DNA from: Nitrososphaerota archaeon
Lineage (GTDB): Archaea > Thermoproteota > Nitrososphaeria_A > Caldarchaeales > Calditenuaceae
Length of the DNA: 64,000 bases
Reading direction: 5' to 3'
Assembly: GCA_038741355.1 (NCBI GenBank)
Contig: JAVYLC010000001.1
Location: 9,119-73,118 of the forward strand
Every line of letters begins with the position of its first letter. Within the stretch, counting starts at the first letter, position 1. The notes beneath the pieces are model-generated. The model saw only the letters and a program-made list of their open reading frames with translations. It was not told where the DNA came from and ran no database searches. Below, piece after piece: positions 39,351-40,502 of the stretch. The position numbers were made by a program, and so were the translations under genes.

Positions 39351-39740
39351 CAGTTATTTATCGATTGTCTAGTGTTTATTCTGCCTTCTCCCGATGGCCG
39401 TCAACATCTCCGGGGCTGCCTCAGCTGCTCGGAGAGGGGTGGAGGACCCCACCCCTCCACTCTGTGGTCGTCATGGATTGTCTCCGGAAACCTCATTCTC
39501 TTTCTTCTTGTCTCCAGCATCCATCCACAAACCCTTCTCAAACACCTCCATGGTGTCTGAGGAGGGCTCAGCTACTGTGTAGAGGCCCCATGCCTCCCCA
39601 CAGCATCCCAGACACCCCCATGGCGTCCGGGAAACATACATGGAATGGATGTGGAGAACGTCATCAAGCAGGCCATCAGTATTCGTCAGAGGTTGCCGTC
39701 CCCGCCCCCGGCCGTTGTGCGCGGCGCCCTAACCCTCCAG

Positions 39741-39922
39741 ACGGCAGCGCCTGAATGGGGGCACGGAACGTAGCGCCGGCGGCTGTAGCGGGGCTTCAAG
39801 CCTCAAATGGCCCACCCGGGCTCACACGTGCGGCGCAGCCCCCAAACGGCAACACCTGAATGGAGGCCTAGACGCCCAGACAACTACCCCCGAGTCAGCC
39901 GTCGGCAACGCCTGACCGGGGC
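39741..39922. repeat. three degenerate direct copies of a 21-nt motif
   Basis: acggcagcgcctgaatggggg (39741-39761), acggcaacacctgaatggagg (39846-39866), tcggcaacgcctgaccggggc (39902-39922). Confidence 0.6.
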
Positions 39923-40502
39923 CAGTTCCCAACCAACCCTCCCCCCGCCACCCCAAAGAGAGAAATAGAGTAGGGGTGGTCGCCCGTATTAGGGCGAGCT
40001 CGGGGGAGTGGTACCGGTCTCTGATGATTGTCTATACTCTCTGTCCGGGCCTTTAGCCGCGTCTTTTCTTCTGGGCGCGCGGCCTCAGCCCGGCGGTGGA
40101 TGCCCAGCCCCGCGTAGGTGTGGGTGGCTCCACACCTCCGCGGACGCTCCTACTGCCGGCCGACGCTTCTCCAACCCTCCGCCCACCCTCGGAGGAGGAG
40201 CCTAGGGCTAATTATCACCCCCCTGCCCTCACCGGTCACTCGGCCGACGGGGAGGACAGCCCCACCAAGAGCCATCCATCCGAGAAGTAGAGGCTTAGGT
40301 GTGAGGTTTATAAGTGTTTCGGAAAAACCCGGGGGACTGTCAACTTAAGGCCACCCACGCCCTTATCCACCTCTCTGAGACCTTTGACCTATGCGTTGGG
40401 AAGTAGGGGGTGGTGGTTTGGTTCAGCAGCTTACCTTGGATGTTTTCCTTCCAAAAACCGAGTATCATGCGGCTAGGGATGGTATGTGAGGAAGGAGGCT
40501 CT

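Follow-up and report, generated by a model that had tools for sequence, protein, structure and literature searches.

A conserved structured RNA-type element upstream of a TasR/IS110-like gene in an inserted mobile element of Caldarchaeales

We analyzed a window of 64,000 nucleotides (nt) of DNA from a hot-spring Nitrososphaerota archaeon of the order Caldarchaeales (assembly GCA_038741355.1, contig JAVYLC010000001.1), to which all coordinates refer. Within this window, the stretch 39440–40167 had been described in an initial annotation as GC-rich, devoid of a credible open reading frame (ORF), and dense in hairpins, with one motif repeated three times. It is well supported that this stretch forms the central part of a structured non-coding RNA-type element of approximately 1.2 kb, which would extend on the minus strand from about 40285 to 39073. 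The RNA lies upstream of, and co-directional with, a gene whose product has the predicted fold of TasR and IS110 enzymes (the TasR/IS110-like gene), and both are enclosed in an inserted mobile element of 2,932 bp. As for its function, the reading that we prefer, tentatively and at slightly less than an even chance, is that this minus-strand RNA of the mobile element serves as a portable 5′ leader acting in cis on a nuclease or mobile-element gene, and not as a guide.

Evidence for a structured RNA on the gene strand

From 5′ to 3′, the RNA (about 1.2 kb here, 0.5–1.2 kb elsewhere) consists of a multi-helix domain (module C), a variable run of hairpins (module B), a three-hairpin domain (module A), and a proximal leader. 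Other species and genera keep the same module order. The features are listed in this direction, each with the evidence on which it was delimited.

40303–40316, minus strand: TATA-like box (TTATAAA at 40313–40307), candidate promoter; read from the sequence
40101–40287, minus strand: 5′ half of module C, of which only 40101–40167 falls within the studied stretch; conservation
39925–40100, minus strand: 3′ half of module C (model R1); covariance model and pair changes
39661–39924, minus strand: module B, variable-number run of small hairpin units; gain and loss of units between copies
39511–39657, minus strand: module A, long closing helix CUCCACAUCCAUUCCA / UGUGGAUGGAUGCUGGAG around three hairpins; conservation and pairing
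39434–39461, minus strand: strong hairpin that can pair in two overlapping and mutually exclusive ways (GGAGGGGUGG/CCACCCCUCC or GUGGAGG/CCUCCAC); conserved in copies C33, C15, C9, and C24
39073–39329, minus strand: gene-proximal leader, ending in a G-rich Shine-Dalgarno-like run and ATG; conservation

We regard the element as a non-coding structured RNA because of compensatory changes, an excess of G-U pairs on one strand, the lack of a codon signal, and conservation in copies and genera. For module C, a plain MAFFT alignment of loci from other species of the genus, folded with RNAalifold, yielded 93 pairs, 11 of which had changed on both sides. For instance, CCGGGC/GCCCGG is replaced by CCAGGC/GCCUGG or CUAGGC/GCCUAG, and UCGCCC/GGGCGA by UCACCC/GGGUGA or CCGCCC/GGGCGG. 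The covariance model R1 gave 37 hits in 14 of the 76 genomes of the class, belonging to three genera and two families of one archaeal order. In the R1 alignment, which was fitted to the model, 29 of 44 pairs had changed on both sides and 91% of cells were paired (37–55% when the partners were slid); none of 500 shuffles reached the observed values. In module A, 92% of cells were paired (39–50% when slid) and seven pairs had changed on both sides, compensatory changes being few because the sequence hardly varies. Compared with shuffled and slid controls, compensatory changes were in excess for R1, while module A kept its pairing with modest covariation. The excess of G-U over A-C cells (110 vs. 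29 in R1, 62 vs. 13 in module A) points to an RNA on the gene (minus) strand. The earlier suggestion of a structured RNA is thus supported, as against that of a decayed gene; among the three identities then proposed (an extension of a guide RNA, a second non-coding RNA, or a decayed gene), the second fits best, in the form of a long RNA that belongs to the mobile element.

R1 comprises the helices CCGGGC/GCCCGG and GCCGCG/CGCGGC, split by an invariant internal loop UGAG/UAAAG, together with a three-way junction of the hairpins UCGCCC/GGGCGA and CCACCCC/GGGGUGG and a G-rich closing strand. The 5′ half of module C holds a bipartite hairpin (40110–40143) and the hairpin CCUCCUCC/GGGCGGAGGG; it is conserved in copies C33 and C12 and in genomes G012 and G017, and partly in G033. 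Three more specific assignments within the RNA were considered and rejected: (i) a kink-turn, as neither the UGAG/UAAAG loop of R1, which might instead be of UAA/GAN type, nor the A·A or G·A mismatches of the small hairpin units fit a G·A/A·G tandem; (ii) a guide role of the hypervariable loop of CCACCCC/GGGGUGG, whose likeness in the present copy to the left end of the mobile element shows no correspondence across copies; and (iii) mimicry of the donor end by AGGGCAGGG, where the similarity does not co-vary between copies.

Module B accounts for the repeated motif of the initial annotation, which was real and present at three places; since the RNA is on the minus strand, however, the motif had been read in reverse and corresponds to hairpins of module B on the gene strand. 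Within the genome the motif is confined to these loci. Units have been gained or lost between copies, with extra ones in C68 and C12, and the segment between motifs differs between C1 and C9/C12. In other species, one to four units per locus, of the type GGGACrGCC-GCkU-GGyUGACC, follow directly on the G-rich end of module C; their stems co-vary and contain a single A·A or G·A mismatch. The variable parts of the units had only chance-level 11–15-mer matches elsewhere in the genome. A CRISPR- or TIGR-like array was rejected for module B: the number of units varies, but the units are without spacer pairs.

All three hairpins of module A carry the loop AUGG(A/G). A unit of 70 nt within it (39542–39611) is a duplication that is missing from some copies. 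Module A is 75–93% identical in other genera (G024, 92%; G027, 87%; G025, 82–93%; G033, 79%; G022, 75%). The proximal leader is conserved in front of both TasR-like genes and genes for LAGLIDADG endonucleases (G017, G012b, G033_C6, G032_C13, G024_C5, and G025_C14).

Composition, folding, and coding potential

The stretch has a GC content of 0.57–0.68, with flanks at approximately 0.45–0.55. All hairpins that had been listed before are present and, like the repeated motif, non-random. They comprise (i) gaggggtgg (39434–39442) with ccacccctc (39449–39457); (ii) tcgccc/gggcga at about 39982–39999; (iii) the bipartite hairpin, with 14-nt arms at 40110–40123 and 40130–40143 that are 93% complementary; and (iv) cctccg/cggagg at 40177–40196. 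The motif belongs to a 29-nt family at 39734, 39839, and 39895 (100, 83, and 69% identity). Allowing up to three mismatches, its consensus occurs in the window only at 39741, 39846, and 39902, where 0.59 occurrences are expected, and a fourth, inverted copy lies at 39686–39700. The sequence CCAACCCTCC is found at 39933–39942, 40171–40180, and 5191 (0.2 expected). Its recurrence had been read as compatible with an element end resembling its target, but the copies at 39933 and 40171 both sit within conserved RNA helices.

The predicted minimum free energy was −369 kcal/mol for the minus strand (z = −4.4 against dinucleotide shuffles) and −328 kcal/mol for the plus strand (z = −5.8), i.e. 41 kcal/mol lower for the minus strand. 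Overlapping ORFs reach 139 aa, but none in the stretch matched Pfam. No codon periodicity was detected in the variable columns across homologues (p = 0.43, 0.90, and 0.62), and indels between homologues are mostly not multiples of three (1, 2, 5, 7, and 70 nt). The description as GC-rich and non-coding therefore stands. An Rfam scan, which the initial annotation had proposed, found no known family over 36000–42500 at E-values up to 1, and none at gathering score in the same part of the window.

Copies, mosaics, and spread

In BLAST comparisons with the source genome, the stretch proved to be multi-copy, modular, and mosaic, and it is conserved in other copies of the mobile element. The region of module A (approximately 39380–39660) is 97% identical in copy C33, whose gene is 82% identical; module B (39661–39924) is 94–98% identical in C9, C68, C48, and C12; and module C (39925–40287) is 83–93% identical in C33 and C12. 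Copies differ by whole units, namely the 70-nt unit of module A, a 35-nt insert, and the extra motif copies in C68 and C12. We attribute the mosaics to recombination between copies. Many copies are located at contig ends, so that the repeats have broken the assembly.

Derivatives were also seen. Copy C8 (G000 C8:13069–14311) has an internal deletion of 38489–39471, which removes the proximal leader and the greater part of the gene. In C24 (G000 C24:2716–3020), the left 125-nt unit of the mobile element is joined directly to approximately 170 nt of the right end, an arrangement resembling miniature inverted-repeat transposable elements. At locus L012 (G000 C16:8264–8542), a module C fragment of 157 nt lies between two pieces resembling tRNA 3′ halves (GGTTCAAATCC and GGGCTCGAATCC); ARAGORN called no tRNA at this locus.

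Outside the genomes of the class, a metagenome scan for the RNA returned four contigs only. No match to the RNA was found in viral contigs (searched with two patterns), phages, or plasmids, and a helix-motif pattern scan of genome contigs gave only chance matches in GC-rich bacteria.

Gene contexts and candidate promoter

We inspected the surroundings of 31 R1 hits. In 18 of them, a TasR-like gene follows on the same strand 350–1100 nt downstream. R1 also matches genome G030 upstream of a TasR-like gene. A LAGLIDADG endonuclease gene stands behind the RNA instead in five (Pfam PF14528, E 2 × 10−17 to 7 × 10−22; loci L207, L209, L210, L206, and L208 in G012, G030, G032, G017, and G033), and the proteins carry an N-terminal helix-turn-helix domain. 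In at least four R1 hits, the RNA precedes an operon encoding a small membrane protein, a Zn-ribbon protein, and a protein with a weak HerA-like match. In all three gene contexts the RNA continues to a purine-rich run and to the start codon. As a separate observation, two of the LAGLIDADG ORFs run on into sequence resembling a tRNA gene on the other strand.

The TATA-like box of the present copy is situated approximately 22–27 nt upstream of the point where conservation starts. Other loci show a different TATA-like box at the equivalent place, just outside the conserved 5′ end.

The inserted mobile element

The remaining features of the mobile element, from left to right, are the following.

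38008–38017, no strand: left copy of the 10-nt target repeat, AATTAAATTT; empty-site comparison with seven congeners
38018–40949, no strand: whole inserted mobile element of 2,932 bp, enclosing the stretch 39440–40167; empty sites
38116–38180, no strand: stem-loop unit 3′ of the gene, outside the studied stretch; hypervariable spots match the target
38206–39072, minus strand: TasR/IS110-like gene, with an in-frame TAA at 38992–38994 in the present copy; paralogues, AlphaFold (AF2) model, and Foldseek
40503–40679, plus strand: small ORF divergent from the candidate RNA promoter, a recurring neighbour, AbrB-like by eye only; tblastn
40950–40959, no strand: right copy of the target repeat, AATCAAATTT; empty-site comparison

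In all seven congeners, which provide the empty site, a GcvH/TusA-like gene stands directly next to a SIS-domain gene; these are the other species of the genus. Alignments of these congeners to the window break at 38017 and resume at 40950, with an overlap of 10 nt. The empty site reads GGGAATTAAATTTTTATTCCACG in the seven congeners; at the filled site, AATTAAATTT flanks the left junction and AATCAAATTT the right one, which gives 38018–40949 as the limits of the insert. The empty sites demonstrate the mobility of the whole unit. With junctions at 38017/38018 and 40949/40950, the right junction once proposed at 40167–40180 is wrong, and the stretch is not the distal part of the insert, which runs on to 40949.

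The insert is arranged in the order conserved 125-nt unit, gene, long RNA, nested 71-nt repeat, small divergent ORF, and right-end segment, the last being common to many copies in the genome. The right end ...GGCTTCAGACC is the same in other copies of the source genome. In four copies (G000 contigs C12, C33, C2, and C15), about 12 AT-rich nt separate this end from ACGATTAGGGGAGAGG, which resembles the start of a left end; such copies may represent tandem elements, or insertions beside the end of another element.

In the right arm, tblastn located the small ORF (40503–40679) upstream and on the opposite strand in six loci, including one or more of another genus. By eye it resembles AbrB/SpoVT (MRLKLPRTAWRSLNIPDKGDYIGVV...). 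It is opposed by an 89-aa membrane-like ORF on the minus strand (40682–40951). The two right-arm ORFs occur in approximately ten copies that are 84–92% identical, and neither matched Pfam. Between the candidate RNA promoter and the small ORF is nested the 71-nt sequence (window 40331–40403), of which there are approximately 17 genome copies (79–90% identical) and which copy C33 lacks at the equivalent position. Possible identities are a miniature mobile element and a small RNA gene; Rfam gave no match for the sequence. Elsewhere in the window, the 23S rRNA gene (43527–47862, minus strand) spans 4,336 nt, compared with 2,987 positions in the model, and includes approximately 1.3 kb of inserts (introns).

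The TasR/IS110-like gene

The assembly (1.65 Mb, 76 contigs) contains approximately ten diverged paralogues of the gene. Homologues of the gene are annotated as hypothetical proteins of Candidatus Caldarchaeum and related metagenome-assembled genomes, without Pfam domains. Neither Pfam PF01548 nor PF02371 matched the protein, and a profile search of the PDB found no meaningful match by sequence. An AF2 model built from a 24-sequence alignment (pLDDT, the model confidence score, 88) had as its best Foldseek match the TIGR-TasR structure 9mty (9mty_A/B, E 6 × 10−7, TM-score 0.58), and it also matched the bridge recombinases ISCro4 (9t56) and IS621 (8wt6/8wt9) over the whole length with TM-scores of 0.54–0.65. 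The predicted fold of the protein thus matches that of TIGR-TasR and of the IS110 bridge recombinases. In the same alignment, the position of the IS110 catalytic Ser is unconserved (S/N/Y/H/D), and no fourth acidic residue is present.

The in-frame TAA corresponds to codon 27, at which paralogues read N, S, or H. The present gene copy is probably a pseudogene, and its RNA modules are intact. In three paralogues (G000 contigs C48, C29, and C17), modules A–C are replaced upstream by another module of approximately 1 kb that is 85–93% identical among the three; in C29, an ORF of 108 aa lies directly 5′ of the gene.

A guide-like unit 3′ of the gene

The unit at 38116–38180 is composed of an outer stem GGCCGGCC, a segment V1, a central hairpin CCGTATCC/GGATACGG, and a segment V2. 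V1 (38126–38135, AATTTTTATT) and V2 (38159–38168, ATTTGATTCC) are two hypervariable spots of 10 nt in the otherwise conserved 125-nt unit. V1 equals the top strand of the target at 10 of 10 positions, and V2 equals the reverse complement of the adjoining GGAAT(T/C)AAAT at nine of 10, so that opposite strands of the insertion site would be addressed. This two-segment match is taken from one locus; in copy C33, where the flank resembles the left end of another element, the match is ambiguous. Most likely, as judged from these sequence matches, the unit is the guide that makes the target choice. In the stretch 39440–40167, by comparison, no match of 9 nt or more to the reconstructed target, the element ends, or the end junction was found on either strand. 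The target-matching segments thus lie in the 3′ unit and not in the studied stretch, and the proposal that the latter is an extension of the guide RNA is not supported.

Comparison to known systems

With IS110 elements (IS621 and ISCro4; PDB 8wt6, 8wt9, and 9t56), the mobile element shares a compact protein of RuvC-plus-helical-domain type with the same predicted fold, a structured RNA in the non-coding part, and insertion at a short specific sequence that is repeated at both junctions. There are several differences. IS110 bridge RNAs measure 150–250 nt, compared with approximately 1.2 kb here, where the consensus folds have no two-loop layout and the studied stretch has no match to the target or the element ends. 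IS110 enzymes have a DEDD RuvC domain and a catalytic Ser, whereas the present protein is without a conserved Ser or the fourth acidic residue. The target-matching unit is located 3′ of the gene, and the RNA also serves genes that are not IS110-like.

TIGR-Tas provides the best structural match of the protein (PDB 9mty; Foldseek), so that a Tas-type gene adjoins the RNA. Stem-loop tigRNAs have the layout stem/spacer/hairpin/spacer/stem (Faure et al. 2025, PMC12045711; Xu et al. 2026, bioRxiv 10.64898/2026.09.09.750476), which is shared by the 3′ unit, with two 10-nt segments that address opposite strands of one site. Module B differs from a TIGR array in that it consists of 16–28-nt hairpins with co-varying stems and, by inspection, no spacer pair, and modules A and C have no counterpart in the arrays of the two studies. 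TIGR-Tas has not been reported as self-inserting, whereas the element described here is inserted.

In Caldiarchaeum subterraneum, which belongs to the same archaeal group, a multi-copy non-coding ‘region a’ of 545 bp was described together with an ORF ‘b’ of approximately 270 aa and of unknown family (Sugahara et al. 2012, PMC3293823). The unit ‘a+b’ was proposed to be a transposable element originating from a plasmid integrase, with ‘a’ as recombination region; no RNA, structure, or strand was proposed for it. Based on gene family, taxon, and layout, part of the RNA family appears to correspond to ‘region a’ of clone JFF014_A09.

The fold-back leaders of IS10 and IS50, and long structured 5′ untranslated regions (UTRs) in general, likewise place structured RNA directly upstream of a nuclease or transposase gene and into its ribosome site. 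IS10/IS50 leaders are tens of nt long, however, and act on read-through transcripts, while the present RNA is 0.5–1.2 kb long, apparently has its own TATA-like box, and is common to unrelated genes.

Possible roles of the RNA

According to the reading that we prefer, transcription would start from the TATA-like box at about 40310 and proceed on the minus strand; the RNA would be a portable 5′ leader, acting in cis to set or gate how the downstream nuclease or mobile-element gene is expressed. Its folded domains might hold back the ribosome site, stabilize the transcript, or bind a protein. Target choice would be left to the two-segment stem-loop unit 3′ of the gene and not to the long RNA. We prefer a portable leader to a guide because the same RNA also precedes LAGLIDADG genes and the weak-HerA operon. 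An action in cis on expression is what we infer from position alone. Several points weigh against the reading as a whole. The covariation score of module A is reached by 58 of 500 shuffles, and the R1 alignment, being fitted to the model, leans towards the structure of the model. The promoter, the transcribed strand, and the ends of the RNA are deduced from sequence. Two loci in another genus have a TATA-like box in the interval from the 3′ end of the RNA to the GTG codon with which the TasR-like ORF begins; the RNA of these loci may be transcribed separately and not be a 5′ UTR. To mask a start codon would require far less than a leader of 0.5–1.2 kb that contains invariant loops and a G-rich block. 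Finally, the gene behind the present RNA copy is broken by the stop at codon 27, and this copy of the mobile element may be decaying.

The size and the invariant loops of the RNA would also allow it a function of its own. Modules A and C might constitute a new class of large structured RNA, a cassette carried between the unrelated TasR/IS110-like, LAGLIDADG, and weak-HerA genes of Caldarchaeales mobile elements and having an activity of its own (capture of ribosomes or host factors, sensing, or catalysis) instead of being a passive leader; we give this perhaps one chance in four. Somewhat less probable is a stand-alone RNA of several kinds of elements that acts in trans on a host factor, on defence, or on maintenance of the element, its upstream position being incidental. 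The large size, the many conserved helices, the invariant loops (UGAG/UAAAG, the G-rich block, and three AUGG loops containing the palindrome CCAUGG), the three gene contexts, and the possible separate promoter of the downstream gene at two loci are in keeping with this, as is the identity of module A between families (87–92%, with proteins at about 55–60%). Against it, the RNA is always co-directional with the next gene and abuts its start, no oligo-U stop separates RNA and gene in the present copy, and the scans of viral contigs, phages, and plasmids gave no match to the RNA. We rate as similarly unlikely an arrangement in which the TasR/IS110-like enzyme has the long RNA, or pieces cut from it, as its second RNA subunit; this subunit would work with the 3′ guide unit as a scaffold or in recognition of the donor end, like the second loop of a bridge RNA. 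The fold match to RNA-guided TasR and IS110 enzymes and the link to a TasR-like gene in 18 of 31 inspected hits agree with a partnership of this kind, and so do the motif GGGGAGrGUUUGGCUGG, present at the 3′ terminus of module C and, on the opposite strand, in the 3′ unit, and the presence in the 5′ domain of the RNA of AGGGCAGGG, identical to the right end of the mobile element. Against it, the same RNA stands before the unrelated LAGLIDADG genes and weak-HerA operon, the stretch has no match of at least 9 nt to the target or the element ends, and known bridge RNAs and tigRNA units are only about 36–250 nt long.

A function at the DNA level, with hairpins and repeats as protein-binding iterons or as a recombination region, seems improbable to us. 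The irregular spacing of the repeated motifs, the frequent recombination between copies that is evident from the mosaics, and the interpretation of the upstream 545-bp region as a putative recombination region (PMC3293823) could be cited for it; but any repeated sequence would recombine between copies, and the G-U pairs and compensatory changes keep the helices on one strand only, whereas DNA-binding sites need neither. By far the least credible view is that a protein gene has decayed here or that the stretch is a spacer without function. It is overlapped by ORFs as long as 139 aa, and the neighbouring gene is broken; yet there is no Pfam match and no codon periodicity, most indels do not keep the frame, and paired changes are found across genera.

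Implications

RNA-guided DNA enzymes of the IS110 and TIGR-Tas groups are of wide interest, and their archaeal relatives have barely been described. The locus reported here contains such an archaeal relative within an element that is demonstrably inserted and whose empty site is exactly defined. Most of the non-coding DNA of this element appears to be taken up by a conserved folded RNA other than the guide. Among archaea, long structured 5′ leaders are rare. Since the same RNA also heads LAGLIDADG genes and the weak-HerA operon, it may represent a general device for expression or control in archaeal mobile elements.
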